Source: a virus
Taxonomy: Duplodnaviria > Heunggongvirae > Uroviricota > Caudoviricetes
DNA length: 16,821 bases
Reading direction: 5' to 3' (one strand)
Virus record (IMG/VR): IMGVR_UViG_2671180758_000023
Under the pieces are notes generated by a model, which saw nothing but the letters and a program-made list of their open reading frames with translations, did not search any database and had not been told where the DNA came from. The position numbers and the translations under genes were made by a program. Positions 1 through 14,985 of the stretch are shown piece after piece; within the stretch, counting starts at the first letter, position 1, and each line of letters opens with the position of its first letter.

Positions 1-1461
1 ATGAAAAAATTACTGCGTCTTTTTTTCCCGCTCTCACTGCGGGTACGTTTTCTGTTGGCAACGGCTGCGGTAGTACTGGTGCTTTCGCTTGCCTACGGAA
101 TGGTCGCGCTGATCGGTTATAGCGTCAGTTTCGATAAAACTACGTTTCGGCTGTTACGTGGCGAGAGCAATCTGTTCTATACCCTTGCGAAGTGGGAAAA
201 CAATAAGTTGCATGTCGAGTTACCCGAAAATATCGACAAGCAAAGCCCCACCATGACGCTAATTTATGATGAGAACGGGCAGCTTTTATGGGCGCAACGT
301 GACGTGCCCTGGCTGATGAAGATGATCCAGCCTGACTGGCTGAAATCGAATGGTTTTCATGAAATTGAAGCGGATGTTAACGATACCAGCCTCTTGCTGA
401 GTGGAGATCATTCGATACAGCAACAGTTGCAGGAAGTGCGGGAAGATGATGACGACGCGGAGATGACCCACTCGGTGGCAGTAAACGTCTACCCGGCAAC
501 ATCGCGGATGCCAAAATTAACCATTGTGGTGGTGGATACCATTCCGGTGGAGCTAAAAAGTTCCTATATGGTCTGGAGCTGGTTTATCTATGTGCTCTCA
601 GCCAATCTGCTGTTAGTGATCCCGCTGCTGTGGGTCGCCGCCTGGTGGAGTTTACGCCCCATCGAAGCCCTGGCAAAAGAAGTCCGCGAACTGGAAGAAC
701 ATAACCGCGAATTGCTCAATCCAGCCACAACGCGAGAACTGACCAGTCTGGTACGAAACCTGAACCGATTGTTAAAAAGTGAACGCGAACGTTACGACAA
801 ATACCGTACGACGCTCACCGACCTGACCCATAGTCTGAAAACGCCACTGGCGGTGCTGCAAAGTACGCTGCGTTCTCTGCGTAGTGAAAAGATGAGCGTC
901 AGTGATGCTGAGCCGGTAATGCTGGAGCAAATCAGCCGCATTTCACAGCAAATTGGCTACTACCTGCATCGTGCCAGTATGCGCGGCGGGACATTGCTCA
1001 GCCGCGAGCTGCATCCGGTCGCCCCACTGCTGGACAATCTCACCTCAGCGCTGAACAAAGTGTATCAACGCAAAGGGGTCAATATCTCTCTCGATATTTC
1101 GCCAGAGATCAGCTTTGTCGGTGAGCAGAACGATTTTGTCGAGGTGATGGGCAACGTGCTGGATAATGCCTGTAAATATTGCCTCGAGTTTGTCGAAATT
1201 TCTGCAAGGCAAACCGACGAGCATCTCTATATTGTGGTCGAGGATGATGGCCCCGGTATTCCATTAAGCAAGCGAGAGGTCATTTTCGACCGTGGTCAAC
1301 GGGTTGATACTTTACGCCCTGGGCAAGGTGTAGGGCTGGCGGTAGCCCGCGAAATCACCGAGCAATATGAGGGTAAAATCGTCGCCGGAGAGAGCATGCT
1401 GGGCGGTGCGCGGATGGAGGTGATTTTTGGTCGCCAGCATTCTGCGCCGAAAGATGAATAA
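1..1461 (+). CDS. phoQ: Sensor histidine kinase PhoQ (complete, 486 aa)
   Basis: Full-length ORF starting at window base 1. Two N-terminal TM segments, acidic periplasmic patch (EDDDDAEM), HAMP, H-box ([10 protein letters not shown]) and HATPase motifs ([16 protein letters not shown]). Matches E. coli PhoQ as I recall it. Stop TAA at 1459-1461. Confidence 0.95.
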
Positions 1462-1970
1462 ATATGTCCTTTTATCACCACAGCAAGGCAACCCATTGAT
1501 TTAATTAAACAACTCACACTGCAAAAAGTGCTAAAAACAGCAAATTGACTACACCATTAACTACACCGTTCGGTGCACTGTATGAAACAACGTGGAACAA
1601 ATAGACACAAGAAATATACAGGCGGGTAATCTTTCCAGGGGGATGCGCACCAATTCATGAGGGGCGTTAATGTCGATATGGGGATCCCCATAACGGGGCT
1701 ACCGGATTTTTTTCCGGTTAACTGTTAATCAGGCTGGTGGGTTTTACCTGTTCGGTAGGTGTTATGATTATCGTAATACTTTTCCCCCAATGGGGTAAAA
1801 GCATCAACCGTAACGGAAGTCGTTATGGTTGCCTTGATGATCTGCGTGGTCATTATGACCATTCAGTCAATGACCTTAATCAGAGCTTTTCGCTAAAAAT
1901 GACGTTGGCCACGTCATCCGGAAAGCACAAAATCCCATCGATTTTTAATTAACGGTTAAACCGTCTTTTT

Positions 1971-2010
1971 GTCACGTCGTGTCACTGGTTGTCACTCTCC
2001 GTCACGATCT
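1971..2010. repeat. Four direct GTCAC repeats at exact 10-bp phasing (gtcacgtcgt gtcactggtt gtcactctcc gtcacgatct)
   Basis: Read directly in the sequence. Preceded by a small hairpin plus T-run (acggttaaaccgtcttttt). Helical-phase spacing suggests a protein-binding array (arm-type or Xis/Cox-like sites); function unproven. Confidence 0.55.
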
Positions 2011-2033
2011 CCGATAGCCTGGCTGCAAATTAA

Positions 2034-2052
2034 ACTACGAAAATTTCGTAGT
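2034..2052. promoter_or_regulatory. 19-bp perfect palindrome actacgaaaatttcgtagt (operator or terminator-like hairpin) downstream of the PerC-like gene
   Basis: 9-1-9 perfect dyad read directly. About 45 nt 3' of the minus-strand ORF ending at 2098. Followed on the minus strand by a moderately U-rich tract (ttaatttgc). Confidence 0.35.
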
Positions 2053-2097
2053 TCTGGCTTCTTTCAGATAGTCGGTTGCCTGGTTACACGAAAAAAA

Positions 2098-2406
2098 TTA
2101 CTTCCTGCGTTTATCCCGCTTTGTATGTCCGTGCTGAATGCCCCGCAGTGGATCTTCTTTTTTCAGGTCGATCCCCATGTCCGTTAGTGTTTTTGTGGCG
2201 GCGGTTCTTATGGCACAAATCAGGTCTCTTTCCGGTTCCCGGGTTATGGTTGCCTTCCGGATACATGCCGTTCGTCGTTCCGTTACATACTGACGCGCTT
2301 CATCACTTGCCGCCTGTTTCAGTAACTCACCCCAGCGATTAGCCGCCCGTCGCCATAAGCCTTTCGCTTCCAGTTCTTCCGCTTTGTCATCATGCACCAT
2401 AAGCAT
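2098..2406 (-). CDS. PerC-family transcriptional activator-like protein (about 100 aa; start at 2406 or 2400)
   Basis: Motif MVHDDKAEELEAKGLWRRAANRWGELL and C-terminal MGID motif, as in PerC/Pch-family proteins. Paralogous to the ORF at 9833-10105. Weak RBS. Confidence 0.55.
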   Translation of the reverse strand: MLMVHDDKAEELEAKGLWRRAANRWGELLKQAASDEARQYVTERRTACIRKATITREPERDLICAIRTAATKTLTDMGIDLKKEDPLRGIQHGHTKRDKRRK

Positions 2407-2452
2407 AATCCCATTGATACCTGTTAAATCTGAATGGTTGGTTTCTGTTCTT

Positions 2453-2484
2453 TTGATAATTTTCCGTATAGCTTATTGTATGAC
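2453..2484 (+). promoter_or_regulatory. Candidate sigma70 promoter for the plus-strand cargo gene (TTGATA -35, about 17 bp spacer, weak -10)
   Basis: TTGATA at 2453-2458 followed about 17 bp later by TTGTAT/TATGAC, upstream of the AAGGAG RBS at 2501-2506. Pattern match only. Confidence 0.25.
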
Positions 2485-2514
2485 AGTACTGTCCCACAAT
2501 AAGGAGTTGCACGC

Positions 2515-2805
2515 ATGAGAATGACCAGACACAAAAAACAGATCCTTGAACTCTACAAACCTGAGTATCGCGATTGGGTGCGGGTGGAGGCTGGAGATCC
2601 ACCTTTTGATGTTCGTGGTGTTACAGTGCTGCTCTATGGTTCCGAATATCAGCGATATCACATAGAGGCAACACGAAGGACGCTAAACGCTATGGTTCGT
2701 GATAAGTTGCTGGAGCGTGTGAAAGTCCGTGAGCCACGTTTTGATGTGCGTATTGGTGGCGATGGTGCGCATTGCACGGTAATCCGCTATGGCCTGGTAA
2801 GGTAA
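2515..2805 (+). CDS. Hypothetical small protein (96 aa) with an internal tandem repeat; convergent cargo gene
   Basis: Strong RBS AAGGAG 8 nt before ATG 2515. Internal duplication PPFDVRGVTVLLYG / PRFDVRIGGDGAHCTVIRYG. Own hairpin plus T-run terminator downstream. Opposite strand to the rest of the element. No family recognised. Confidence 0.6.
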   Translation: MRMTRHKKQILELYKPEYRDWVRVEAGDPPFDVRGVTVLLYGSEYQRYHIEATRRTLNAMVRDKLLERVKVREPRFDVRIGGDGAHCTVIRYGLVR

Positions 2806-2835
2806 GCCATCGGGTAAATCAGATGATTAAATCAC

Positions 2836-2900
2836 CAGAATGTAAATTTACATTCTGCCAGCCACCAGCTACCCTCCTCAAAATTGAGGAGCCTTTTTAT
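2836..2900. terminator. Bidirectional terminator region between convergent genes: 22-bp palindrome cagaatgtaaatttacattctg and hairpin ctcctcaaaattgaggag followed by CTTTTTAT
   Basis: Two perfect dyads read directly. The second (2874-2891) is followed by a T-run on the plus strand. The first (2836-2857) is followed by a U-rich tract in the minus-strand direction. Confidence 0.55.
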
Positions 2901-2907
2901 CAACTGG

Positions 2908-3189
2908 TTACCGCCGTAACCGCTCCGGCTTCTTCCAGTGGTACGTGATTTTCTCCTTCTCCCGATACATCTCCACGCGGCGACGGTATGCCAGCAACTC
3001 AAGGACTCTGGTTCGTATATTGCGCATATCCGCATCGTTAAGTTCAATACCATCACGGCGCATCACCTCAGCAACAACACGCGCATAATTTTCGGCGGTC
3101 ACGCTGTCCGGCTGCGTGGCCTGTTCGTCATGCTGCTGGCTGATTCCAGAGACGCGGCGGATTAATCGCAGTATTTCGGCTTCTGTCAT
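2908..3189 (-). CDS. Hypothetical protein (93 aa) immediately downstream of the large terminase
   Basis: ATG at 3189 with GAGGT about 9 nt upstream. 13 nt after the TerL stop. Charged, helical-looking sequence. No family recognised. Confidence 0.5.
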   Translation of the reverse strand: MTEAEILRLIRRVSGISQQHDEQATQPDSVTAENYARVVAEVMRRDGIELNDADMRNIRTRVLELLAYRRRVEMYREKEKITYHWKKPERLRR

Positions 3190-3202
3190 GCTGCTGACCT
3201 CA

Positions 3203-4864
3203 TTACACCCCGCTAAATTCTTCCAGTTTCTGGCGGTGGCTGTCGCTTATATCAAAAGCAAAATCCTCATGCTCTGCCTGGAATGTACCAAACGCCATCA
3301 GCGCCGCTACGCTCGGGTCTATCTTGTTCGGTGATTTTTTCTTGTTCGGCTTGATATTGGCGTTCGCGTCACTCTGCATCACGACGTTACTCATCGACCA
3401 GGACAACACCGGATCGCCACGATGCACAATCACCCTGCGGTTAACAAAAACTTCGAACGATTTCGCCGCCGGACTGAATCTGAGGTAGGTTTGCGGGAAC
3501 GGCTCCACCTCAAAACCAGCCCCCTGTAATTGCGTCCTGAGATGCGTGGCGTTCCACGTATCAAAGCCCACCAGCCTGATATTAAATTTCTCCGCGTCCT
3601 GCATGATGTCATCTCTGATCCGGTCGTAATCAATGCAGTCACCTGGCGTTGTGCGTATCCAGCCCGCTTTAGCCCACTGGCGATAGACAGCGCGGTTTTT
3701 ATTGGCGGGGTTCTGTAGCTGGAACTCCGGCAGATAATGACGGGAAACCAGCATAATGGTTTTACCTACCGGAAAGGCATAGCACACGCTGGAAATATCG
3801 CTTGTGGATGATAAATCCAGCCCCGCGTAACACTCCTGGCCGTGTAAATCTTCCTCCGTGAACGTTCCGGCACACTCAGCCCATGCGCCGTTACCCATCC
3901 ACGGGGTAGTCCCCTGACACCAGATATTAAATCGCTTTGTCATCATCTCCACCCACTGCGACGGAATACCCCGCGCTTTCTGGATGGTTGAGGCCAGTTT
4001 TTCACGATCCACGGAAACATCGATGTTAGGGTTAGCCTTTATCCACATCGCCGGATCATCAACCTCGTTTTCGTCGTCCAGTTCGTAAATCAGTACAAAA
4101 ATTGAATCGTTGACCTCTTCGCCGTCCAGGATCTGGCAGCAATAATCATAGTGCTGCTTACAGGCTGAAACGACGTTACTGCCCGATGTAGTAATGGCAA
4201 ATAACAGCCCTTCGGGACGTGCGCCCATCCCCAGCTCAAGCGCGGAATAAACGCCGTTATCGGGGTGTAGGTGGTATTCGTCCACGATGGAAAGGCTTGG
4301 GTTTGTGCCCTCGATGGTTGCCGCTTTTGCTGCCAGCGGCTTTAACAGGCTGTTGCTTTTCGGGTGCATCACCTTGTGGGCCTGAATATTCACCCGCCTG
4401 CGTAACGGTCGGGATAAAAGGCACATCTGACGCGCATCATCAAAAACGATCCGCGCCTGGTCACGGCTCACCGCTGCGGTGTAAATATCCTGCTGCCCGT
4501 TCTCCATAATCAGAAACCAGTTAGCCAGAATCGCGGCGGTCGTGGATTTCGCATTTTTGCGTGGCACTTCGATAAAGGCGCTCGTGTATTTGCGCCGTCC
4601 GGTGGCCTTAACCTTAAAGCCGAGGATGCACGCAAAGGCGAACTGCTGCCACGGCTCCAGCTCAATGGGTCTGCCACGCATCGGCCCTTTTACGTGCGGA
4701 CACACCCTGGAAAAGGCAATAAACCGCTCCACAACCTCACGATCGAACGTGTAAAGGGGGCTTTCAAGGTCCGAAAAGTACCGTTTAACGGCCTGTTTCA
4801 GCCGTTTACAGGCCGGAATTTTGCCCGTTTTTACGTCTTCTGCGTACTTATTCCAGGCGGTCAA
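3203..4864 (-). CDS. Terminase large subunit (553 aa), probable TTG start overlapping the terS 3' end
   Basis: Typical TerL N-terminus (MTAWNKYAEDVKTGKIP...) and ATPase/nuclease-like length. First codon in frame is TTG (plus-strand CAA at 4862-4864) preceded by AGGA. Overlaps terS by 17 nt. Confidence 0.9.
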   Translation of the reverse strand: MTAWNKYAEDVKTGKIPACKRLKQAVKRYFSDLESPLYTFDREVVERFIAFSRVCPHVKGPMRGRPIELEPWQQFAFACILGFKVKATGRRKYTSAFIEVPRKNAKSTTAAILANWFLIMENGQQDIYTAAVSRDQARIVFDDARQMCLLSRPLRRRVNIQAHKVMHPKSNSLLKPLAAKAATIEGTNPSLSIVDEYHLHPDNGVYSALELGMGARPEGLLFAITTSGSNVVSACKQHYDYCCQILDGEEVNDSIFVLIYELDDENEVDDPAMWIKANPNIDVSVDREKLASTIQKARGIPSQWVEMMTKRFNIWCQGTTPWMGNGAWAECAGTFTEEDLHGQECYAGLDLSSTSDISSVCYAFPVGKTIMLVSRHYLPEFQLQNPANKNRAVYRQWAKAGWIRTTPGDCIDYDRIRDDIMQDAEKFNIRLVGFDTWNATHLRTQLQGAGFEVEPFPQTYLRFSPAAKSFEVFVNRRVIVHRGDPVLSWSMSNVVMQSDANANIKPNKKKSPNKIDPSVAALMAFGTFQAEHEDFAFDISDSHRQKLEEFSGV

Positions 4865-5204
4865 GCTCGTCCTCTTCTTCTGTTTCCGGTGGATTTTTAC
4901 GGCGGCTTATCGGGTCAAAACCGAGCAAAGAGGCCATTTTTATCATCACTCTTTCAGCGTCGGATTTTGCGCTTAATGCGGGGTTTCTGCTCTCTCCGCC
5001 CTGACTGTTAACAATGCTGAACCCGCGCGCCGCAAGGTCTGCGACGGCTTTCCGGTATATCGAGTAATTGACGCAATACAGTTCCAGATTACTCCAGTCG
5101 GCGGGAGTCAGGTCACCCCGTTCCGCAAGCTGCCGCGATTTTTCCCGCCACTGCTTCACGGCGATATCATCCAGGTAGGCGGGGGCTTTCGGTGGTCTTG
5201 CCAT
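4848..5204 (-). CDS. Terminase small subunit, P27 family (118 aa)
   Basis: MARPPKAP...LELYCVNYSIYRKAVADLAARG pattern typical of P27-family TerS. Position immediately 5' of TerL. Weak RBS. Confidence 0.8.
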   Translation of the reverse strand: MARPPKAPAYLDDIAVKQWREKSRQLAERGDLTPADWSNLELYCVNYSIYRKAVADLAARGFSIVNSQGGESRNPALSAKSDAERVMIKMASLLGFDPISRRKNPPETEEEDELDRLE

Positions 5205-5494
5205 GCTTATTTTTTCGCCAGATTATTTTTCAAAAAATTCCCGTGCATAAAAATTTGAGGAGGCGTTCGGTGCCCGGCGGGGTCGGGTTTGTCCTGAAAA
5301 CGCCCCCCCACCCCGTCATACAGCCTCATCAGCGATTGCGGAAACATTCCATAACCTCGCGGTCACGGTCGGTTAATCGCTTCGCTGTGATGCGTTCTGC
5401 GCGTCCTGACGCTTTATCTTTATGCCCTGTTTCCTGTGTCTTCCATGCGTCACGCTGCCTTATAAGTCCACGGATAAGGCGGTTTTGTTCCCGC
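5205..5494. other. HNH-terS intergenic region; candidate cos/packaging site (G-rich tract tgcccggcggggtcggg at about 5271-5287)
   Basis: 290-bp non-coding gap in an otherwise tightly coupled operon, between an HNH endonuclease and a P27-family TerS, which is the arrangement of cos-type HK97-like phages. The G-rich tract is only loosely similar to lambda cosN (GGGCGGCGACCT). Confidence 0.3.
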
Positions 5495-5935
5495 TCATTC
5501 ATCAGCGTCATACATCCAGTTATTGCGGTTAGCGGCCCGTTCTTCCTCCTCACGGAATCCGCCAGCGGCACGCTTGCTTTTTGTTGCCGGATCAAGCCAC
5601 TTCGTTTTCTGGTTATGACACGCCTGGCACAATGGCTGATGGTTCCATTCGGGCCAGAAGAGAACATCATCACCGCCATTAATCGGGATAATGTGATCCA
5701 CCACCACGGCGGGCGTATATATCCCCTTCTCAAGGCATCGCACGCATAACGGGTTTTTACTCAGATACATGGCGCGGTATTTGTCCCACTGTCTGGAGTA
5801 CCCACGCGCGCGGCGGTGTCCTCGTCTGGCATCCTCTGCACGCCATGCCGCCCGCCTGTGCTCCTCACACTTGCCGGACTTCACGCGCCTGTTACAGCCT
5901 GGTTCTGTGCATCGTCTTAATGGTTGCCACGGCAT
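5495..5935 (-). CDS. HNH endonuclease (146 aa), terminase-associated
   Basis: Cys-rich zinc-finger-like N-terminus (CTEPGCNRRVKSGKCEEH, CVRC) and HNH core (DHIIPINGG...NHQPLCQACHNQK). Start overlaps the connector stop (TGATG). Confidence 0.85.
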   Translation of the reverse strand: MPWQPLRRCTEPGCNRRVKSGKCEEHRRAAWRAEDARRGHRRARGYSRQWDKYRAMYLSKNPLCVRCLEKGIYTPAVVVDHIIPINGGDDVLFWPEWNHQPLCQACHNQKTKWLDPATKSKRAAGGFREEEERAANRNNWMYDADE

Positions 5936-6231
5936 CAGTACACCCCCACATCACGGTAAGCCGTCCAGAGTGCACCAATCGTCATGGGTACGCGTGTTTT
6001 TGCGTTATCCGCGACAATCTGGCGATTTTCATACAGGTGAGCGATAAACATCATGCAGCCAATCTTTATGGCTGGCGTGAACGCCAGCCCGTCATCAAAG
6101 CGCCTGCCTATGTGTATCTGGCACGCCTCAAGCGATGCGGCAATGTATCCGCTGATTAACTGGTCTTCCTCGTCGCCATCGATGCGGCAATGGAGTTTCA
6201 CTTCTTCCAGGGTGATAAGTTCTTCTGTCAT
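5935..6231 (-). CDS. Head-tail connector protein, gp6-like (98 aa)
   Basis: MTEELITLEEVKLHCRIDGDEEDQLISGYIAAS...AHLYENRQ matches the gp6-like connector pattern (LxEVKxHLRID...DxLI). ATGA overlap with the upstream gene. Confidence 0.75.
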   Translation of the reverse strand: MTEELITLEEVKLHCRIDGDEEDQLISGYIAASLEACQIHIGRRFDDGLAFTPAIKIGCMMFIAHLYENRQIVADNAKTRVPMTIGALWTAYRDVGVY

Positions 6232-6566
6232 TTTTCCGCGCCCTCACGACAAAGAATTTCAAGGCGTGTCCTGGCGGCATCCGGCAGCGGCTGCCCGATG
6301 ATATTCAGTACACGCCCCGCCAGCGGCCCCGTATTGACCTTTATCCGGCTGGTGGCGTTGATGTCCTTCCTGTAGCGTATCCATATCCTTACCGTTCCAG
6401 TCGCCAGTTCTGCACCCGATGAAATGGCCTCCTTGCTGCTGATCATGTTCACGCTTGCCCAGAGTGTGTGACCGTCCACCCACGTTTCGAGTATTTCGCC
6501 GGTTATATCCCTGGTCTGTTTCAGGGTCTGAATCGTTACCCTGTCACGCAGTCGCCCTATGTTCAT
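6228..6566 (-). CDS. Head closure / head-tail joining protein (112 aa from ATG 6566; ORF extends to 6608)
   Basis: GRLRDRVTIQ...TWVDGHTLWASV...VRIWIRYRKDI...RIKV matches the head-closure family pattern. ATG at 6566 forms an ATGA overlap with the portal stop. An alternative ATG lies at 6608. Confidence 0.7.
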   Translation of the reverse strand: MNIGRLRDRVTIQTLKQTRDITGEILETWVDGHTLWASVNMISSKEAISSGAELATGTVRIWIRYRKDINATSRIKVNTGPLAGRVLNIIGQPLPDAARTRLEILCREGAEK

Positions 6567-7774
6567 TCCGGTTTTTCTCCCTCGCTGATTTTTACTTCCT
6601 GTTTCCATGCCTGGCTGAACTCATCACCACCATCACGCGGGGACAGCCCTTCACGTTCGCGGGCTTCGTTCGGGCACATAACGCCGGATTTGATGCCGCG
6701 TTCATAGGTGGCAAAGCGTTCGCCAGGTGTGGCCCGTAACAGGTCCGCGCTGTCAAACTCCACCTGATACCGGATACCAGGTACAGGTGAGGCCACCAGC
6801 AGGGCGTTTTTTATCTGCTGCTCAAAGTTCGCCAGCCACGGGCGCATCGTCATGGTGAGAAATGCGCGGCTTGCCTCGCTGAAATTGCTGTAGGTGCTGT
6901 TGCTGTATTCCTGCAAAAAAATCGGCGAGACGTTGAACATTCGGGCGATGTCTTCAATGGTGAAGCGACGGGAGGCCAGCCATTCAGCATCCTGATTACT
7001 CATGCCCAGCTGCTGATAGCTCATACCCCCTTCAAGGATGGGCGTTTTTCCGGCGTTTCTGGCCCCTTTGTAGCGTTCCAGTGCGGCTAATGCCTGTTTG
7101 CCCTTCACGCCGTCCAGCCATTCGCCTGACGTGATAACCCCTGCCGCCATCATGCCATCACGCATCACGCTCGCGCCGTGGCGTTGTTGGGCCAGCCCAA
7201 GCCCCAGCGATTCGCGGCAGATGGTTACAGGTGAGCGCCCCATAAAACCGTCATCCGTGGAGTAACGAAGGTGGAGAACCTCCCACGGTAAATAGTTGCG
7301 GGTGTTTCCGGTGTAGGCGTCAGTGATGCAGTAGCGCCAGTTATGCTCACCTGTCTGCTCCACGTTCACCGACTGCGGCGGGTAAGGATGCAAAGCCACC
7401 GGAAAACCATCACGCCCCCACTGAATCACCGCATAAGCATTACCGTTTAACAGGCAGTGGCGGATCATCATTCGCTTAAACTGGTAGGGGGTTTGCCATG
7501 CGTTCGGGCGCTCGTTGAGGATGTGATCGACCGGATGAGAATCAAGCCACTCTCGGGCCTCCTTCCCCTTCTCATTGCGTACCAGGTACAGGTAACACGG
7601 CATGGTAGCCACCGCCTCAGAGATGACCGTGACGGCGTTCATGACGGCGGGCAGTGATTCCGCTGTCCCCGATGATACGTACTCACCCGCCCCCGTGTTC
7701 GATGTGCCGGCCAGCGCCATAAACTCATCAAGCGTCATGCTGCGCTGCTCTTTTTTTCTTCTGAAAGGCCACAT
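6563..7774 (-). CDS. Portal protein, HK97 family (403 aa)
   Basis: Length and sequence pattern typical of HK97-family portals. RBS GGGGGTG 7 nt before ATG 7774. Sits between the protease and head-closure genes. Confidence 0.9.
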   Translation of the reverse strand: MWPFRRKKEQRSMTLDEFMALAGTSNTGAGEYVSSGTAESLPAVMNAVTVISEAVATMPCYLYLVRNEKGKEAREWLDSHPVDHILNERPNAWQTPYQFKRMMIRHCLLNGNAYAVIQWGRDGFPVALHPYPPQSVNVEQTGEHNWRYCITDAYTGNTRNYLPWEVLHLRYSTDDGFMGRSPVTICRESLGLGLAQQRHGASVMRDGMMAAGVITSGEWLDGVKGKQALAALERYKGARNAGKTPILEGGMSYQQLGMSNQDAEWLASRRFTIEDIARMFNVSPIFLQEYSNSTYSNFSEASRAFLTMTMRPWLANFEQQIKNALLVASPVPGIRYQVEFDSADLLRATPGERFATYERGIKSGVMCPNEAREREGLSPRDGGDEFSQAWKQEVKISEGEKPE

Positions 7775-7775
7775 A

Positions 7776-8348
7776 TCACACCCCCGCTAAATCCGCCCAC
7801 CAGCGGCGATTATCCGCACGCGGCATTTTTTCGGGGTGCTGCTCGTACAGGGAGCGGCGGGCCAGCTCCACGCCGGAATCAGGGTAAGCCGGTACGGATG
7901 TAACGGTAATTTCGTATAGTTCCGCCACCAGCACGGTGCGCACGCATGGATCTGTTGTGGTATCCCATACATCCTTACGGGAACGAAAGCCAAAGCTCAT
8001 GCCGGATATATCACCTCGTTTAACCAGTTCGATAACGTCGCGCCCTGTACTGGTATCCGGTGGGGTCAGTTCAAAGCGTAACCCTGTTTCGTCCTCTTCC
8101 AGTTTCAGCGTGCCGGAACGGGTGCGCCCCAGTAACATGCTGTGGTCATGCTCATACAGGCCGCGAACGTCATTACCCGCCGCAAGCCACTCAGTAAACG
8201 CCCCCCGCTGGAATTTTTCGTAAAACTCCCCCCATAGCAGTTCTGAAAGCTTATCCCAGCGAACAACGTAGCCCGTCAGCGTACCGGCTCCGCTGGTAGT
8301 GATTTCCGATGACCGGATTTCCATACTCTTCATAATTTTTTCACCCAT
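7776..8348 (-). CDS. Prohead maturation protease, HK97 family (about 180-190 aa)
   Basis: Conserved pattern GYVVRWDKLSE...GLYEHDH...LGRTRSGTL...ISGMSFGF typical of HK97 prohead protease. Start may be ATG 8348 or the downstream ATG at 8333. Confidence 0.85.
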   Translation of the reverse strand: MGEKIMKSMEIRSSEITTSGAGTLTGYVVRWDKLSELLWGEFYEKFQRGAFTEWLAAGNDVRGLYEHDHSMLLGRTRSGTLKLEEDETGLRFELTPPDTSTGRDVIELVKRGDISGMSFGFRSRKDVWDTTTDPCVRTVLVAELYEITVTSVPAYPDSGVELARRSLYEQHPEKMPRADNRRWWADLAGV

Positions 8349-8377
8349 AAAACACTAAAGGGGCTTTTAAGCCCCTT
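8345..8377 (-). terminator. Intrinsic terminator/attenuator hairpin between the major capsid and protease genes
   Basis: Dyad aaggggctt/aagcccctt (8358-8377) followed in the minus-strand direction by a GTTTTAT U-tract. Placement immediately after a capsid gene is common for stoichiometry control. Confidence 0.45.
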
Positions 8378-8387
8378 CTGTATGCTG

Positions 8388-9545
8388 TTAATCGTCGTCC
8401 TGTGGCAGTTCCAGAATCTTGATCGCGTTCGAATCCACCACGCCACCGCCTAAATATTTCTGCGTGAAAATTTTGATGAAGCCCGGCTCTGTGAGGTTGT
8501 CCGGTCTGGTGCGAACACCTGTTTCGTGATCAACAATGTAGTAACCGCGTTTGAAGTCACCCAGGGCAATAACGTTATCAGGCATAAACTCCAGATATTC
8601 GACCGGAAGGCCCAGCAACGTATCAGGATCACCCGCCTGTAAACGGTCGCGCCAGATGTAATCACCGTTCGCGTTCTTCACCTTCTGAAGTTTTGCCGCC
8701 GTCGTGGAGTTAACCACCCAGACCGCGTTTTTGCGGTATTTTTTACGTAATGCAAATTTCAGGTCGATCAGCGGGTCCGCAGATGTCCACGCCAGAGATT
8801 CGGAAGGTTTAATTACCTGCAACGTACCAAAATCACGCTCTTTGTCGTTCTTCTCTGCACGGGGTACGGATAAAAAACCTTTTGCTTTTTTGTCACCGTC
8901 GCCCACAACCAGATCGCTTTCTTCGGTTTCCGTGAAGGTGTCGCCAATCTCACCCGTCAGCCATGAAAGGATGTCCACATCGGAAAAATCCACGATTTCC
9001 TGTGTGGTGCGCGGGTACGCATAGACCGGATACAGCTTAATGCTCACCTCGTTAATCTGCGGGGTGCTGGTCTGTTCGCGTGTCTTACCCTCTTCACCGT
9101 GGTTAACGGTCGCACCGCCAGCGGAAACAAGCTGCTTAAACTCGTTGCTGCTGATTTTCTTCACGGTACAGATGCGGCGCATGGTGGATTCATCCGTCAG
9201 CATTCGCATGATTTCGGTGTTCAGTTCGGGGATAACGGTATAACCACCATCAGCGGGAACGCCTGTACTTAATGCGCGGGTTTCACCTGTCAGAATGTAG
9301 TTGCGTAGTTCTGCGGGGTCAGTGGTCTGGCTGCTTTTACCTGGCTTGCTGCGCTCTTCGTCTGCAATGGCTTCAAGGCGGGAAATGTCTTTATCGAGGG
9401 ATTCAGCTTTAGCGCGTAATTCGTCAAATTTTGCGCCCTCAGCATCGTTAAGACTGCGGTTTTCTTTTTCCGCGTTCTCCAGCATGTCGCGCATCTGATT
9501 TTTAATGGCGGTTTTCTGCTGGCGTAATTCGATTATTCTCGGCAT
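8388..9545 (-). CDS. Major capsid protein, HK97 fold (385 aa from ATG 9545; ORF track extends to a GTG at 9593)
   Basis: N-terminal coiled-coil delta/scaffold-like domain (IELRQQKTAIKNQMRDMLENAEKENRSL...) followed by a typical HK97 MCP body. AGGA 8 nt before ATG 9545. Confidence 0.9.
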   Translation of the reverse strand: MPRIIELRQQKTAIKNQMRDMLENAEKENRSLNDAEGAKFDELRAKAESLDKDISRLEAIADEERSKPGKSSQTTDPAELRNYILTGETRALSTGVPADGGYTVIPELNTEIMRMLTDESTMRRICTVKKISSNEFKQLVSAGGATVNHGEEGKTREQTSTPQINEVSIKLYPVYAYPRTTQEIVDFSDVDILSWLTGEIGDTFTETEESDLVVGDGDKKAKGFLSVPRAEKNDKERDFGTLQVIKPSESLAWTSADPLIDLKFALRKKYRKNAVWVVNSTTAAKLQKVKNANGDYIWRDRLQAGDPDTLLGLPVEYLEFMPDNVIALGDFKRGYYIVDHETGVRTRPDNLTEPGFIKIFTQKYLGGGVVDSNAIKILELPQDDD

Positions 9546-9832: not shown

Positions 9833-10105
9833 TTATCTGTCCTGGTAATTTCGCCATATTTCATCGCTTACACCATCTATACCCATTTCAGCATAAGTGC
9901 GATCTACTGCCTTTCTCAGGTCTCCGAAGTTATCCGGCGGCTCCGGTGGCTTCTGTGCCTTCCTGGAACATTCCAGCCGTCGCATCGTAACCTGATGCCG
10001 TTCCTTGTCTGTCTCCACCAGCAGCATGACTTCACCCCATCGCGCCGCCGCCCTCCGGTAAAAGCCTTTCGCCTCGAGTTCTTCCGCTATGCGGTCATGT
10101 ACCAT
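9833..10105 (-). CDS. PerC-family transcriptional activator-like protein (90 aa from ATG 10105; ORF track extends to a GTG at 10225)
   Basis: MVHDRIAEELEAKGFYRRAAARWGEV and C-terminal MGIDGV motif. GAGGGGG RBS 5 nt before ATG 10105. Last gene of the early/replication operon before the terminator. Confidence 0.6.
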   Translation of the reverse strand: MVHDRIAEELEAKGFYRRAAARWGEVMLLVETDKERHQVTMRRLECSRKAQKPPEPPDNFGDLRKAVDRTYAEMGIDGVSDEIWRNYQDR

Positions 10106-10115
10106 CGCCACCCCC

Positions 10116-10526
10116 TCAGAACGGAATACCGTCACCGTAAGGGTCATCGCCTCCCGCTGGTGGCTGATTACCCTGTGTGCCTGTGGTTTTGCGTCTGTTC
10201 CCGCCAGGACGTGCCGCACGGGCACTGATTACGCTGTCTGCAATAACCTGATAACCCTGCCGCGTTTCCCCGTTCTGTCCGGTCCACTGGCTGACCTGCA
10301 TCGTGCCGGATACGCTGGCAACGTCGCCTTTTTGATGTTTAGCCAGGAAGTCGGCCTGCTTACCAAATGCGATGACCGATAGCCATAACGTAGCCTGCCC
10401 ATCCTGCGCCTGACTACATGGCAACGATACCGCCATACGTGCCAGCGTCATTGGTGTGCCCTTGCTGGTCTGTTTTACCTGCGGGTCGTCCACCAGCCGC
10501 CCGTAAGCTGCTATCTGTGCTGTCAT
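10116..10526 (-). CDS. ssb: Single-stranded DNA-binding protein (136 aa)
   Basis: OB-fold-like N-terminal region, Gly/Gln-rich linker and C-terminal acidic tail ending DDPYGDGIPF (SSB DDDIPF-type tip). Strong RBS GGAGAGGTGG. ATGA overlap with the upstream ORF. Confidence 0.8.
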   Translation of the reverse strand: MTAQIAAYGRLVDDPQVKQTSKGTPMTLARMAVSLPCSQAQDGQATLWLSVIAFGKQADFLAKHQKGDVASVSGTMQVSQWTGQNGETRQGYQVIADSVISARAARPGGNRRKTTGTQGNQPPAGGDDPYGDGIPF

Positions 10527-10774
10527 GATTCCACCTCTCCGGTTTTAACGTTGATGGTTGTCACCTGTTCAGCTTCCGCAATCTCCCGCTCTGTCAGCGT
10601 GGCAAAATTTGCCGCCGTCGTGGTCATGAATGCGCTTATCAGTTCGGGATGTGCTTTCGCGTATCCTTCCCCCGCGTGGCGGTCTATCGTTCTGATTGCC
10701 ACCTTTAAGGCGTGCTCTGTCATGTCTAACGCTTTATATTTTGGCTCTGTTCTGTCTCTGTGTTTTTGAGTCAT
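10523..10774 (-). CDS. Hypothetical small protein (83 aa from ATG 10774; ORF track extends to a GTG at 10906)
   Basis: GAGGTGGG RBS before ATG 10774. The ORF portion upstream of 10774 coincides with the iteron array, so it is probably non-coding. Confidence 0.45.
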   Translation of the reverse strand: MTQKHRDRTEPKYKALDMTEHALKVAIRTIDRHAGEGYAKAHPELISAFMTTTAANFATLTEREIAEAEQVTTINVKTGEVES

Positions 10775-10777
10775 TTG

Positions 10778-10985
10778 CCCACCTCTACCCACTTTTTTCG
10801 CCCACTTTTTACGTTTTCCCACTTCGTCCAACGTGGGAAATTTGGGATTTATATCATCTTGTTTCATAGGTATTTTTTTAGTGCCCACTTTTTGGGATAT
10901 ATACACGTGGGAAAGTGGGTAATTTTGTTAAAATTCCGTTAAATCGCCCACCTTTCCCACTTTTAATGCCCACTTTTTACAGTGG
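10778..10985. repeat. Iteron array (about 10 copies of CCCACTT(TT), both orientations) flanking an AT-rich core; candidate replication origin
   Basis: Copies at 10778, 10788, 10801, 10818, 10884, 10947, 10956 and 10969, with inverted copies at 10833-10838 and 10907-10919. AT-rich spacer at 10838-10883. Immediately 3' of the replication ATPase gene, as in PICI/SaPI origins. Confidence 0.55.
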
Positions 10986-12377
10986 TCCTACATCATCACC
11001 GTCAATGTAGATCACGTCGTCTTTTTCCAGTTTGGCTAACCATCGTTTAAGGTGTTTTGTGTCATACCCCAGCTTTTTCATATCGTCACGTAACAGCGGG
11101 ATCGTGCACTTGTCGCCGTGCTGTGTGCGTGAACGTATGCATCCCCATAGCGCGGTATGGTTTTCCGTCTTGTTCCCTGCCTCCTCGATGCGCTCCAGTT
11201 CAACAGGAGGGCGCGGATCATCCACCACCACCAGCGACGTGATTAATTCACCGTCAGCGTCGGTAAAAAGCTCCACCACGCGTAAGTCATATGCGGCTTC
11301 TTTGAGTTCCTCCGCGTCCTTCATTTTGGTGCATGAGATAACCAGCGCTTCGCTTCCTGCGTCCTCCCTGCGTATCCGGTATTCAGCATCCAGCGAAGCA
11401 CGAAATGCACTGGAACCGCGCGCGCCTTTCGTCTCATCCTTGCCGGAATGGTGAACCACCAGCACCGTGGCCCCTGTGCGTCGTTTCAGTTCGTCACAAC
11501 CACGGATAAACGCCCCCATATCACGGGAATCATTTTCATCATTCCCACCAAAGCAACGCGCCAGCGTATCCAGAATAATCATGCGTACAGGTTTACCCGT
11601 TTCCCGCTCCACCTGACGGGCAGCGATAACCATTTCATCAACATCAAGCGGGGCAGCCGGAAAGATGGGGCGGTTTACCAGATACAGATTTTTCACCTGC
11701 TCATCGTGCACAACCTCCCAGGCTTTTACACGACGCGGAACACCTATACCGCCTTCACCAACCACATAGAGAACCGCACCATGTGCAACCCTGCGGCCTC
11801 CCCACTGGCGACCAGTGGCAACATGGCACGCCCACGATCCGGCAAGGAATGATTTATAGGACCCGCTAGCCCCGTATATGCTGCATAGCGATACCGCCGG
11901 AATAATCCCCTTAACCACGTAATCCAGTTGCGTGTCGTATCCGGTAGATCCAACGCTCATCGGTAGCGTGGTTTTTCGCTGGTGGTTTTTTTCTTCCGCC
12001 GGCTCTTTCCCGCGCACCCGTTCCAGGTATTCGCGCCAGTTCTCCCGCATATGGCTGTGCATCCCTTCGGGGTAATAATTCGCATCAGTTACACCCGCCG
12101 CCGCCAGCTTGTGCGCAATGGCATTAATATTTGATGGCCTGATGTGGCCTGCCTTGTACAGCCGGACACAATAGCGCCCCTCGTCGATGATTCTCAGGTC
12201 TGCCAGTTCATCCAGTTGATCATCAGCCAGCACAACGGGAGGCACATTATCGCCAGCCAGTCGCCCGTCCTGTTCCTGCCACTGTTTCGCATGTGCCCAG
12301 GCATCACTACCCGCAAAAATAATGACTTCGGTCATCTTGTCGTAAGGCTGTTTTTTTAAGTTCGGTGCGCTTTTCAT
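10977..12377 (-). CDS. Replication protein, RecA-fold ATPase (RepA/AAA_25-like helicase, pri-rep analogue), 466 aa
   Basis: Walker A-like YGASGSYKS, Walker B-like VRMIILDTLARCF, and VLVVHHSGKD motif typical of RepA-like helicase ATPases. Unassigned N-terminal domain and a C-terminal winged-helix-like tail. A canonical primase domain is not evident by eye. Confidence 0.8.
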   Translation of the reverse strand: MKSAPNLKKQPYDKMTEVIIFAGSDAWAHAKQWQEQDGRLAGDNVPPVVLADDQLDELADLRIIDEGRYCVRLYKAGHIRPSNINAIAHKLAAAGVTDANYYPEGMHSHMRENWREYLERVRGKEPAEEKNHQRKTTLPMSVGSTGYDTQLDYVVKGIIPAVSLCSIYGASGSYKSFLAGSWACHVATGRQWGGRRVAHGAVLYVVGEGGIGVPRRVKAWEVVHDEQVKNLYLVNRPIFPAAPLDVDEMVIAARQVERETGKPVRMIILDTLARCFGGNDENDSRDMGAFIRGCDELKRRTGATVLVVHHSGKDETKGARGSSAFRASLDAEYRIRREDAGSEALVISCTKMKDAEELKEAAYDLRVVELFTDADGELITSLVVVDDPRPPVELERIEEAGNKTENHTALWGCIRSRTQHGDKCTIPLLRDDMKKLGYDTKHLKRWLAKLEKDDVIYIDGDDVGPL

Positions 12378-12673
12378 TTCTTGCCCCTGAATCCGTTAAT
12401 CATGGTTTTCAGCTTCTGGATGTTTGCCCGTGCCCTGGCGTTGCTGGTGGGCACGTTATGCGGCGCGGTCTGTACCAGAGAAAAATCACGCCGGAACTGA
12501 TAAACAGGCATCACGCAATCATATTCGTAACCTTCACGGCGGTAAGTTACGCACCGTCCCGCCACGCCCTTAATCATTACCGTGCCGCCGTACTGGTCGC
12601 GGTAAATATCACCGCGCGTAAATTTAGGGTGAGTGTTGCCACTGGCAGTTAAGCCAGAATATTTAAGTTTCAT
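12374..12673 (-). CDS. Hypothetical protein (99 aa)
   Basis: ATG with GGAGA RBS. ATGA overlap with the replication gene start. No family recognised. Confidence 0.5.
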   Translation of the reverse strand: MKLKYSGLTASGNTHPKFTRGDIYRDQYGGTVMIKGVAGRCVTYRREGYEYDCVMPVYQFRRDFSLVQTAPHNVPTSNARARANIQKLKTMINGFRGKK

Positions 12674-12678
12674 TATTT

Positions 12679-12912
12679 TTATTCTCCGGTGTGCTGTTCT
12701 TTATATCTGTCGTGCAATAGATCTATTTCTTGCAGTTCCATTATTACAGGCTCAAGAAGCGTTATTAATGCCGTGGCAATTCTTGATTTTTGTTTGTCGC
12801 GTTCATTGTCGCCAAGTGTTTCAAGCCATATGCGCAATATTTCCAGCATGTTTTCACTGTGAGAAAGTGCAAGAAATGCGCGGTCTATTGTTTGGTGGTA
12901 AATATCACGCAT
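12679..12912 (-). CDS. Hypothetical protein (77 aa)
   Basis: ATG 12912 with GAGGA RBS. 5-nt gap to the next gene. No family recognised. Confidence 0.5.
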   Translation of the reverse strand: MRDIYHQTIDRAFLALSHSENMLEILRIWLETLGDNERDKQKSRIATALITLLEPVIMELQEIDLLHDRYKEQHTGE

Positions 12913-13369
12913 GGCTTACATCCTCAGGAAATTTTCTTCTATAACGCGCCTCTGCCACATATTCCGCATAATCGGCGGCGATATTCAGTACATCAAGCCC
13001 CGTTGATTTATATTCTCTCGTGGAAAGTAAGAAAAAAGCCGCTCTAATAAGTTCTGGCATTGACGAAAGCGCATCAGCCGCATCATCAGGAACGCCGGAA
13101 AATTCCTGTTTCAGGGAATTAAAACGATCATCACGCATAACCCCCCCATTTTCACAATCAGCAATCAGGATAGCTTTGGCCTCATTCAGCGCCGTATCAG
13201 CACTAAATTGCATGACAGCCAGTGAGTGAGGAACGAAAGCACCGGCATATTCTGTTTCGCTGGTGGCGTGCTTATGTGCCCTGTCCGCGATAACAGAAAT
13301 ATCAATCAGCGCGTGCATCAGCGTTTTGATGGCTTCGGCGGCTGCGTCCGGTGTGGTTTTATTGTGCAT
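12905..13369 (-). CDS. Hypothetical protein (154 aa)
   Basis: ATG 13369 with AGGGGA RBS. Acidic, helical-looking. Overlaps neighbours by a few nt. No family recognised. Confidence 0.55.
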   Translation of the reverse strand: MHNKTTPDAAAEAIKTLMHALIDISVIADRAHKHATSETEYAGAFVPHSLAVMQFSADTALNEAKAILIADCENGGVMRDDRFNSLKQEFSGVPDDAADALSSMPELIRAAFFLLSTREYKSTGLDVLNIAADYAEYVAEARYRRKFPEDVSHA

Positions 13370-13571
13370 AAAGCATCCCCTGAATATTCGTGTTAATCAT
13401 TCCGGCACGTTTTGTGATTTCCTGTAATGATTCCCTTGTGGCGACAATTGCTTCATCTGGTAAGTGGTAATTACACACCACGCGACCTTTATCCACATTG
13501 ACCAGTAGCTGCCCTGTGAATTTCTCACGAAACTGAATGCGGTTAAGGTCAGTAAGTGACAGATTAATCAT
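13359..13571 (-). CDS. Hypothetical protein (70 aa)
   Basis: ORF in the coupled operon; overlaps the upstream gene by 8 nt. No family recognised. Confidence 0.5.
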   Translation of the reverse strand: MINLSLTDLNRIQFREKFTGQLLVNVDKGRVVCNYHLPDEAIVATRESLQEITKRAGMINTNIQGMLYAQ

Positions 13572-13767
13572 GGCGCACCTCCTGACGAATACGGGCAGCG
13601 AATACCATCACGCAGCCAGCCGGAGATTGCTGGCGTGCTTCCTGTTCGCTGGTGGCCTCAATGGTAATCACGCGCGGTTGTGCCGTGCTCAGGGCGATAA
13701 AACGCCAGATGTATTTATTCAGGTTGTGCGAGTCCCGCCCTTGCGGGTGTGTGGTATTATTTCTCAT
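13564..13767 (-). CDS. Small protein (67 aa) resembling Icd-like (host cell division inhibitor-like) proteins of P4-family elements
   Basis: GAGG RBS 5 nt before ATG 13767. Motifs YIWRF, IEATSEQEAR and FAARIRQEV recall P4-family Icd-like proteins (from memory, not searched). First gene after the divergent promoter region. Confidence 0.45.
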   Translation of the reverse strand: MRNNTTHPQGRDSHNLNKYIWRFIALSTAQPRVITIEATSEQEARQQSPAGCVMVFAARIRQEVRHD

Positions 13768-13802
13768 AGCTACCTCGATACTCTCGTTATCGTTGGTGGT
13801 TA

Positions 13803-13837
13803 GAAGCCCCGTTACTGCTCCAACAGTGCGGGGCTTC
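13803..13837 (-). ncRNA. Leader stem-loop (gaagccccg ... cggggcttc, 9-bp stem, 17-nt loop) in the 5' UTR of the early operon
   Basis: Dyad read directly. Lies between the predicted minus-strand promoter and the Icd-like start codon. Not followed by a U-run. Confidence 0.3.
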
Positions 13838-13874
13838 GTCGTTTCAATTGCTGAATTGCATGTATCAGCACTTG

Positions 13875-13929
13875 TGGTATTCACATTACATTTAGGTGAA
13901 TACCATTTCAAGTCTTTTTTGGTATTCAC
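13875..13929. promoter_or_regulatory. Operator array in the divergent switch region: three copies of TGGTATTCAC (two form a 10-11-10 palindrome), overlapping back-to-back promoters
   Basis: Copies at 13875-13884, 13896-13905 (inverted) and 13920-13929. Minus-strand promoter candidate TTGAAA (13906-13911), 17-bp spacer, TAATGT (13883-13888) overlaps copies 1 and 2. Plus-strand -10 candidate TATTAC (13935-13940) lies just after copy 3. Confidence 0.45.
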
Positions 13930-13972
13930 TTTTGTATTACACTGCATCCCGTTATTAATGGGAGGTGCAAAC

Positions 13973-14278
13973 ATGTCCAGGAGTTCTGTTAACAATAAGT
14001 CACAGCAACTGAATGCCAGATTTCCACATGAAGTAGTGAGTGGCATTGAGGCATCCCTACAGCCAGGGGAAACTAAAGCGAATTTTATAGTTACGGCTGT
14101 ACGCGGTGAGATCGCCCGGCGCCAGGCAGAAGGAAGTGGAGAAAATCCCCTGGTTTCTTCGCTCGATGCACTGGCGCAGGTGGAAAAACTCGGAATCAAA
14201 GCCGCCGAGGAGATCGGGCAGCTCGTCACTGTCGCACGTGAAGAACTCCAGCGCCGCAAGACCAAAGAACCAGAGTAA
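13973..14278 (+). CDS. Ribbon-helix-helix-like DNA-binding protein (101 aa); candidate repressor/regulator of the switch
   Basis: Strong RBS GGGAGGTG 5 nt before ATG 13973. N-terminal beta-strand-helix-helix pattern (LNARFPHEVVSGIEASL...ANFIVTAVRGEIARRQ). Divergent from the early operon. Followed by a clear intrinsic terminator. Confidence 0.6.
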   Translation: MSRSSVNNKSQQLNARFPHEVVSGIEASLQPGETKANFIVTAVRGEIARRQAEGSGENPLVSSLDALAQVEKLGIKAAEEIGQLVTVAREELQRRKTKEPE

Positions 14279-14335
14279 TCACCATCAGCGCCGTGGTGTA
14301 AGGTATTACGGCGCATTGCTATGCAGGACAACACA

Positions 14336-14509
14336 ATGACCGATAAAGAATTGACCAAAACATTATCACCGGCACGGAAAAGACGGCGCAGAAAGATAGA
14401 GCATGAATCAGAAAGATTCGCGCCATGTGCTTTTGCCCTTGAGCAATTCCTTAAAGAGTACAGGGAAAAGCGCTCATTGCAGGTATGGCAACGAACTGAA
14501 CCAGACTGA
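14336..14509 (+). CDS. Hypothetical small basic protein (57 aa)
   Basis: AGGA 8 nt before ATG 14336. Basic patch RKRRRRK. Same transcription unit as the RHH gene, ending before the terminator at 14589. Confidence 0.4.
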   Translation: MTDKELTKTLSPARKRRRRKIEHESERFAPCAFALEQFLKEYREKRSLQVWQRTEPD

Positions 14510-14588
14510 TTGCATTGCCCACCAGCCGCAAATGTGGCATTGTTGGCAATGCTCATGCGTTGGGGATAACGTGTAGCTTGTGTCGAGG

Positions 14589-14617
14589 GGCCACCGTAGC
14601 GGGTGGCCTTTGTTTTG
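14589..14617 (+). terminator. Rho-independent terminator (ggccacc-gtagcg-ggtggcc followed by TTTGTTTTG)
   Basis: Perfect 7-bp GC-rich stem, 6-nt loop and U-run, about 80 nt after the stop of the plus-strand operon. Confidence 0.7.
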
Positions 14618-14985
14618 CCCGTTATTCGGCAATTGTGGCGCTTCTCCACATGGTTGATATAATCCCACTGCTCAGATTCATTTTTTGCGCAGTAGGTTAA
14701 TTGTTCACAAAGGCGCTCCGGCAACGGGGCGCTTTTTGTTTTTATTAGTTTGTAGAAACCTGACTCAGAGATAATGCTCATATTCTGATTGCCGTCAGGG
14801 GTGTAAGTTAAATTTACTCCCTTTTTATCATCAAACATCTGCAACGCTCTGGCGTTAACAATATTGGTTTCACTCCCGCCAGTAAGGCCGGAAATAACCG
14901 GAATAATTTCGGCAAAATTTTGCAGATTCTGTTTTTCAGGACGAACGAAGCCCCGCCCTTGTTCGGGAGAATATCCAGTATTCAT
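14618..14985 (-). pseudogene. Bro-N-like antirepressor N-terminal domain, probably a gene remnant (no in-frame stop before running antisense through the plus-strand operon)
   Basis: Residues DDKKGVNLTYTPDGNQNMSIISESGFYKLIKTKSAPLPERL align to the Bro-N pattern (DEDEKGV...GG.Q...IISE.GLY.LI..S..P.A..F). Weak RBS. The frame stays open for 473 codons to 13564, but the middle section is Ser/Cys/Arg-rich antisense of a well-supported plus-strand gene. Confidence 0.3.

Follow-up and report, generated by a model that had tools for sequence, protein, structure and literature searches.

The stretch of DNA analysed here, referred to throughout as the window, is 16,821 nucleotides long and opens with phoQ, a gene that in Escherichia coli K-12 is followed closely by roxA (ycfD). 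Inspection of the letters alone had led to the proposal that a satellite is inserted directly after phoQ, displacing the expected neighbour, and that its integrase targets an intergenic or protein-gene 3' site rather than a tRNA. This raises the questions of exactly where chromosomal sequence ends, what has been inserted, and which sequences the integrase is likely to use. The interpretation is supported, and the finding is correct but ordinary: the region between 1460 and 1620 is almost certainly the phoQ-side attachment junction of a 15.5-kb capsid-forming phage-inducible chromosomal island (cf-PICI). Neither the site nor its 10-bp identity block nor the family to which the element belongs is new, all being known from the literature and from annotated reference genomes.

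The junction between phoQ and roxA

In the K-12 strain BW2952, phoQ and roxA are on the same strand and are separated by a 75-bp spacer, in agreement with the roughly 100 bp given in the sequence-only reading, with pepT and potA next. The PhoQ protein of the window is identical to that of K-12, and a tblastn search of the window with K-12 RoxA returned nothing better than E=1.5, so that the stated lack of a RoxA-like ORF in the window holds. Two features define the boundary:

1-1461, + strand: phoQ, complete, 486 aa, stop codon at 1459-1461 (from the ORF list and the annotation in all matching genomes)
1460-1469, unstranded: att identity block AAATATGTCC, from a three-way attB/attL/attR comparison, with a direct repeat 172 bp past the right end of the window

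We compared positions 1200-2100 with 5,426 complete E. coli genomes, in every one of which phoQ was matched. Alignments with uninterrupted genomes reach 1469, or only 1466 if they are trimmed by the K-12-type SNP, and synteny does not continue beyond 1469. The junction at 1469/1470 is thus 8 nt past the phoQ stop codon; the satellite had been expected to begin within a few hundred bp of that codon, and the border is sharper than that. The empty site, attB, reads gaaTAAATATG(C/T)CCatacttcacg, the phoQ side of the window reads gaaTAAATATGTCC followed by ttttatcacc, and the roxA side in relatives reads gataAAATATGTCC followed by atacttcacg. In longer form, the empty site is …GATGAATAAATATG(C/T)CCATACTTCACG…, the phoQ side of the window is …GATGAATAAATATGTCC joined to TTTTATCACCAC…, and the roxA side in related occupied genomes is …AATTGATAAAATATGTCC joined to ATACTTCACG…. 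The identity block at 1460-1469 takes in the final two bases of the stop codon of phoQ. The attL core that had been placed somewhere in 1462-1600 does lie at the start of that interval, but begins 2 nt before it. The name attL is appropriate in the orientation of the window, whereas by PICI convention, with int on the left, this junction is attR.

Because the window ends at the integrase start codon, the second copy of the block falls outside it. An exact-protein look-up of the 473-aa ORF (13564-14985) yielded contig L009 (GCA_013999155.1), which agrees with the window at every one of the 13,258 bases that can be compared (100% identity) and was used to extend it. The direct repeat anticipated to the right of 16821 is present in this contig at extended coordinates 16993-17002; both core copies are perfect, and the length of the element between them is 15,533 bp. 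The roxA gene is displaced and absent from the window only: it starts 249 bp to the right of base 16821, with its ATG at extended coordinate 17070, 67 bp after the second block copy. Joining the two element ends reconstructs a circular attP junction, …CACTAATTGATAAAATATGTCCTTTTATCACC….

The same block has been reported before. The junctions phoQ.EcCICFT073 and phoQ.EcCIRM12579 have the identity block GGACATATTT (PMC10111431 supplement), which is the reverse complement of AAATATGTCC and therefore the identical 10-bp sequence; it is found here at the 3' end of phoQ and at both ends of the element, placing the element in the published phoQ att class. The EcCICFT073 and EcCIRM12579 flanks are near-identical to those of the window on both sides, the element-side flank of EcCICFT073 differing at a few bases (…ttttatcacTacaTcaaggcaaGcc…), although EcCICFT073 is a classical PICI without capsid and terminase genes of its own. 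For tqsA.EcCI042 and tqsA.EcCIK1516 the published block is ATAACAGCA (PMC10111431 supplement), and both the phoQ and the tqsA blocks were derived here independently of the published ones. A literature search combining phoQ/ycfD with island and integrase found no relevant paper.

The target is the 3' end of a protein-coding gene and the adjoining intergenic spacer, as had been proposed. ARAGORN finds no tRNA or tmRNA in the window and no tRNA at the roxA-side junction of L009, and neither junction contains a tRNA or tmRNA 3' part of the kind used in P4-like integration. Within 1300-3300 there is no RNA family match (Rfam, E up to 1), and a promoter/terminator scan of the same interval gave no promoter-like site and only weak terminator-like hairpins that are not above chance. 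The coding sequence of phoQ is kept, with a 3' flank that would now be element-derived. On its side, roxA would still have 67 bp of its own upstream DNA, among them the hairpin-forming GTTAAGCATCC…GGATGCTTAAC seen in the sequence, but would lie 15.5 kb from any phoPQ read-through. For annotation, the value is that the border of the element is fixed at 1469/1470, with phoQ intact and roxA displaced rather than lost.

Most E. coli genomes have the site empty. Of the 5426 complete genomes, 4823 (89%) cover a 220-bp probe that spans the empty site, and 600 cover a 220-bp probe that spans the window junction. Most of the whole window is present in only 56 genomes, and many different island variants therefore use this junction; all of the occupants inspected, a subset of the 600, are PICIs or cf-PICIs. 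Probes containing phoQ also matched 10-13 places on records labelled as plasmids in the E. coli genome collection, which may have the wrong replicon label or may be plasmids that have picked up chromosomal segments.

Proposed strand exchange within the identity block

The reconstructed attP reads …CACTAAT TGATAAAA TATGTCC TTTTATCA CCACAG…, in which TGATAAAA and TTTTATCA form a perfect 8-bp inverted repeat around 7 bp. This arrangement suggests the following assignments at the phoQ side:

1455-1462, unstranded: putative host core-type half-site B, TGAATAAA, comprising the last phoQ bases and stop codon (by lambda-type analogy)
1463-1469, unstranded: candidate strand-exchange (overlap) region TATGTCC, flanked in attP by the inverted repeat
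1470-1477, unstranded: first element bases, putative half-site C' TTTTATCA, the reverse complement of the int-side TGATAAAA that precedes the core

The host half-site matches the element TGATAAAA at 6 of 8 positions in the same register, and the putative inverted core-type sites surround a candidate overlap of 7 bp inside the attP/attB identity, within the 6-8 bp expected of a lambda-type site. We propose that the tyrosine integrase of the island recombined circular attP with a chromosomal attB extending from the phoQ stop codon into the start of the phoQ-roxA spacer. Exchange would occur inside the 10-bp block, most likely in the 7-bp TATGTCC at 1463-1469; phoQ, including its stop codon, would then lie wholly to the left of the exchange and so be left unaltered. 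The TATGTCC register is the one we prefer, and it is probably, though by no means securely, correct.

Position 1467 is a T/C polymorphism of attB. Counting exact 43-mers, 3,688 genomes have an empty site with TATGTCC, matching the element exactly, and 1,132, K-12 included, have TATGCCC. The K-12 allele puts one mismatch into the proposed overlap, and the uninterrupted identity is then AAATATG (1460-1466), which is also 7 bp. Among occupied sites, T is present at both ends in Sakai and in the lineage of the window, and C at both ends in several genomes such as NCTC86; C is seen on the roxA side in 12 genomes and on the phoQ side in about 7-10. In O157:H7 strain F6321, a single island (contig L003) has TATGTCC on the phoQ side (5460-5469) and TATGCCC on the roxA side (21047-21056), a combination that fits either a crossover to the left of 1467 or a heteroduplex within a TATGTCC overlap.

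These data give some substance to a different placement of exchange at the same junction, namely in AAATATG (1460-1466), with position 1467 falling in the C'/B' sites and not needing to match between attP and attB. With a K-12-type attB the uninterrupted identity is exactly 7 bp, and the F6321 configuration, in which the junction next to phoQ has the T of the element and the junction next to roxA the C of the host type, is the outcome that this placement predicts. Moreover, the closely related EcCIEDL933 has been moved into a laboratory strain, and if that strain has the K-12 allele, the mismatch was tolerated. However, AAATATG has no flanking inverted repeat, whereas TATGTCC has a perfect 8-bp one; the register of TGATAAAA plus 7 bp also fits the tqsA-type site, where it yields TGCTGTT; and lysogens with C at both ends exist, the two ends tending to co-vary at 1467. 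We thus regard exchange in AAATATG as a minority possibility, rather unlikely beside the TATGTCC register. The attB polymorphism and the mixed T/C lysogen together provide an inexpensive handle for mapping the crossover region.

Repeated motifs in the attachment-site arms

Sequences beyond the core are organized as would be expected for integrase accessory sites, and three features are present on the phoQ side:

1489-1501, - strand: IHF consensus match AATCAATGGGTTG, located after the core and ahead of the arm motifs (a consensus match only)
1544-1567, + strand: doubled 12-nt motif ATTGACTACACC ATTAACTACACC, candidate arm-type integrase sites, repeated in the other arm
1538-1620, + strand: block of ~84 nt repeated between the arms in direct orientation, with its copy at extended 16837-16921

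The ~84-nt repeat gives a local alignment score of 80, compared with 24 for the reverse complement. The doubled motif has the consensus ATT(A/G)ACTACACC, and the other, int-proximal arm has ATTAACTACACC ATTAACTACACC in the same orientation. In the 25-kb extended sequence ACTACACC is found four times and nowhere outside the two att arms; the copies are co-oriented, with a spacing of 12 nt, so that repeated motifs are found on both arms and are arm-specific. The IHF consensus has 4 matches in the window where 0.69 are expected by chance, and the match at 1489-1501 sits at the start of a block conserved with tqsA-type PICIs.

Since the integrase contains an arm-binding domain (PF13356), the doubled motifs are most likely arm-type sites. 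The N-terminal arm-binding domain would bind them to assemble the intasome, and the four half-sites most likely correspond to one per subunit of an integrase tetramer. Cleavage positions, IHF binding and binding by the integrase arm domain are all predicted here from the sequence.

PICIs that target tqsA (EcCI042, EcCIK1516 and the element in strain PE164) provide an informative comparison. The PE164 element, inserted in tqsA, encodes a 409-aa integrase that is 91% identical to that of the window, and in this group both att arms are conserved, as are the doubled motif and the IHF consensus within them. The phoQ and tqsA types also have their left core half-site, TGATAAAA, in common, whereas in the tqsA type the core cassette of ~35 nt is completely different and has the identity block TGCTGTTAT; with the register of TGATAAAA plus 7 bp, the tqsA-type overlap TGCTGTT falls wholly inside its 9-bp identity block. 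The tqsA-type doubled motif is AGTGACTACACC in both arms, with the same change, ATTA to AGTG, in each. Of 38 differences between the phoQ-type and tqsA-type integrases 19 lie in residues 1-95, where 20% of positions differ as compared with 5-8% elsewhere. The consequences for the host also differ, because the tqsA-type target is inside the tqsA coding sequence and the gene is split, whereas use of the phoQ site leaves phoQ intact.

In PE164 the tqsA gene is represented by a 144-nt 5' fragment (L005 8846-8989) and a 906-nt 3' fragment (L006 3127-4032), both annotated as pseudogenes, and tqsA thus appears to be disrupted by the related PICI in that strain.

The doubled ATTAACTACACC motifs might instead be bound by AlpA, an excisionase-like regulator, or by another factor, rather than by the arm domain of the integrase. 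The authors who described an analogous doubled motif in HE-PICIs left the same ambiguity (PMC10111431), and AlpA does vary between related elements, with 93.5% amino acid identity between the window and EDL933. On the other hand, the integrase has a clear arm-DNA-binding domain, four co-oriented half-sites in two arms supply one for the arm domain of each subunit of a tetramer, and the motif change between phoQ and tqsA types coincides with integrase substitutions concentrated in residues 1-95. Recognition by AlpA or some other factor is therefore improbable, although it deserves some weight, and we favor the integrase arm domain as the ligand.

In helper-embedded PICIs (HE-PICIs) the doubled arm motif, tgTGTATTGCantgTGTATTGCa, lies 81±2 and 132±2 bp from the attP centre (PMC10111431). 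Like that motif, the one described here is a tandem pair with a 12-nt period, of which there are two copies that point the same way and are not equally far from the attP centre; its nearest edges are 78 and 132 bp from the centre of the proposed overlap, as compared with 81 and 132 in HE-PICIs; this agreement in distance may be partly coincidental, and the basis of the HE-PICI distances may differ. The motif sequences are unrelated (TGTATTGC compared with ACTACACC here), and the integrase clade and the targets differ too. It is conceivable, though we hold this only tentatively, that the geometry of the doubled ATTAACTACACC represents an attP layout common to different PICI integrase clades, with the phoQ and tqsA elements as a natural retargeting pair. 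If true, the determinants of core specificity in this integrase family would be directly mappable. The arm-motif geometry, the pair of phoQ and tqsA core cassettes, and the mixed-allele lysogen are the mildly new aspects of this locus.

Core-type inverted repeats around a 7-bp overlap, IHF sites and arm-type sites constitute the attP architecture of lambda-type tyrosine integrases. At the level of sequence, the attP reconstructed here resembles it in several ways: an 8-bp inverted repeat encloses 7 bp, an IHF consensus separates the core from the arm, motifs recur in each arm, and the integrase has its arm-binding domain as a separate unit. It differs in that its arm motifs form two tandem pairs, with no change of orientation from one arm to the other.

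Gene content and relation to EcCIEDL933

The genes between the two core copies are arranged in modules, as follows:

1495-1866, unstranded: conserved int-distal end, common to EcCIEDL933/Sp7 and tqsA-site PICIs
1867-2897, unstranded: variable accessory module of ~1 kb, adjoining the att end and absent from EcCIEDL933
2098-2406, - strand: PerC-family gene (PF06069, 4.6e-23), the second PerC of the element
2515-2805, + strand: 96-aa ORF, divergent from the PerC gene, no family match
2908-9545, - strand: capsid and packaging module (Pfam matches), beginning with a 93-aa ORF
3203-4864, - strand: TerL
4848-5204, - strand: TerS
5495-5935, - strand: HNH endonuclease
5935-6231, - strand: connector
6228-6566, - strand: head closure
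6563-7774, - strand: portal
7776-8348, - strand: prohead protease
8388-9545, - strand: major capsid
9833-14985, - strand: replication and regulation module, including small ORFs
9833-10105, - strand: PerC family, first copy
10116-10526, - strand: SSB
10977-12377, - strand: RepA-type AAA_25 helicase, 466 aa
12374-12673, - strand: DUF4222 protein
13564-14985, - strand: 473-aa ORF, directly after alpA
15038-15226, - strand: alpA-like regulator, 62 aa (PF05930 Phage_AlpA, on the identical locus L009)
15592-16821, - strand: tyrosine integrase, 409 aa (PF13356, Arm-DNA-bind_3, 9.7e-19; PF00589, Phage_integrase, 3.7e-17)

The two domain matches in the integrase correspond to a tyrosine-recombinase catalytic domain and a separate arm-binding domain. 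A blastn search of 1470-1900 against 50,697 phage records found nothing similar; the conserved end block is therefore not a cos region held in common with phages. The part of this block past the arm repeats, 1620-1866, is more than 90% conserved in PICIs with a different attB (tqsA), and the conservation extends further than an att arm requires. The palindrome CGATATGGGGA/TCCCCATAACG lies within this part (1674-1695), for which the phage and RNA family searches gave no match.

The region of the 96-aa ORF contains an internal 40-nt imperfect repeat (2577-2616 / 2712-2751), and 43 complete E. coli genomes cover at least 80% of the accessory module as a whole (1867-2897). In EHEC, LEE is under the control of PerC/Pch homologues, and the PerC-type cargo may thus bear on virulence. 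The 473-aa ORF has no Pfam or PADLOC match; its similarity to phage 'transcriptional repressor' families (phrog_6196, 7e-54) is confined to the C-terminal ~90 aa, residues ~49-84 contain a weak Ant-like motif, and it occupies the position of a short Icd-like gene in relatives. The exact protein occurs in 28 assembly-collection blocks, for which 24 contigs were read, and all six of the contexts shown are this PICI beside roxA. None of the unassigned ORFs has a PADLOC match to a defence system.

We used the description of cf-PICIs by Alqurainy et al. (10.1101/2022.09.08.507074) to classify the element. Cf-PICIs are about 10-15 kb in size, and this one, at 15,533 bp, is essentially the size of the 15.4-kb prototype, EcCIEDL933; its int gene lies beside regulator genes including alpA, and it carries its own capsid and packaging module like that of EcCIEDL933. 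Neither tail nor lysis genes appear in the annotation or the gene calls for the window, L002, L003 and L009, in which a few small ORFs are unassigned. Cf-PICIs use six attB sites in E. coli, four of which are common to classical PICIs, and experiments on EcCIEDL933 demonstrated alpA-dependent induction by the helper phages HK106 and HK446 and transfer at high frequency (10.1101/2022.09.08.507074). Such induction, and tail-less capsids to which helper tails are added, are traits of the class demonstrated for EcCIEDL933 alone; another trait is an attachment site that prophages do not use.

In the EDL933 chromosome the sole such element sits exactly between roxA and phoQ, in the same orientation as that of the window. 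Its length, 15,461 bp from the coordinates and from the span of Sp7 in Sakai, matches the 15.4-kb EcCIEDL933 and compares with 15,533 bp here. In Sakai the element is annotated as 'prophage Sp7; untypable' (15,461 bp), with borders inside the identity block at both ends; SpLE2 was also considered as the Sakai counterpart and was ruled out, as it is located at cobU/yeeB.

The Sakai annotation invites the view that the element is a decayed, immobile prophage remnant and the junction a fossil, and the lack of tail or lysis genes could be read in the same way. However, the integrase, alpA and the whole capsid/packaging module are intact, both core copies are perfect, and HK106 and HK446 induce the near-identical EcCIEDL933, which occupies this site too, and transfer it at high frequency (10.1101/2022.09.08.507074); mosaic variants at this site in many lineages also argue for ongoing mobility. 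A remnant is thus very unlikely. That the 15.5 kb is ancestral and has been precisely deleted from most E. coli, a purely formal possibility, is already refuted by the att structure (one core copy at the empty sites of 89% of genomes, two copies in direct repeat at occupied sites), and in addition the segment encodes an integrase and phage-type genes and the same element family uses other att sites.

The inserted element is a mosaic variant of EcCIEDL933, within a known satellite family. Gene order is common to the two, namely int, alpA, replication, capsid, protease, portal, connectors, HNH, TerS and TerL. Positions 1-1864 of the window have 98.4% nucleotide identity with EDL933 and the packaging module 96.9% with EcCIEDL933, and amino acid identities are 97.1% for the integrase, 100% for the capsid, 99.5% for the portal and 98.4% for TerL. 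Most of the replication/regulation region differs, in contrast: the RepA-type AAA_25 helicase (466 aa) of the window has as its counterpart in EcCIEDL933 a DUF927 primase (710 aa), a modular exchange within an otherwise near-identical cf-PICI, and the 473-aa ORF after alpA compares with a 247-aa ORF. The window also differs over 1865-2897, where the extra PerC module of ~1 kb (1867-2897) lies beside the att end; EcCIEDL933 lacks this module. The window thus represents the prototype cf-PICI with a different replication module and additional PerC-type cargo, integrated at the same site.
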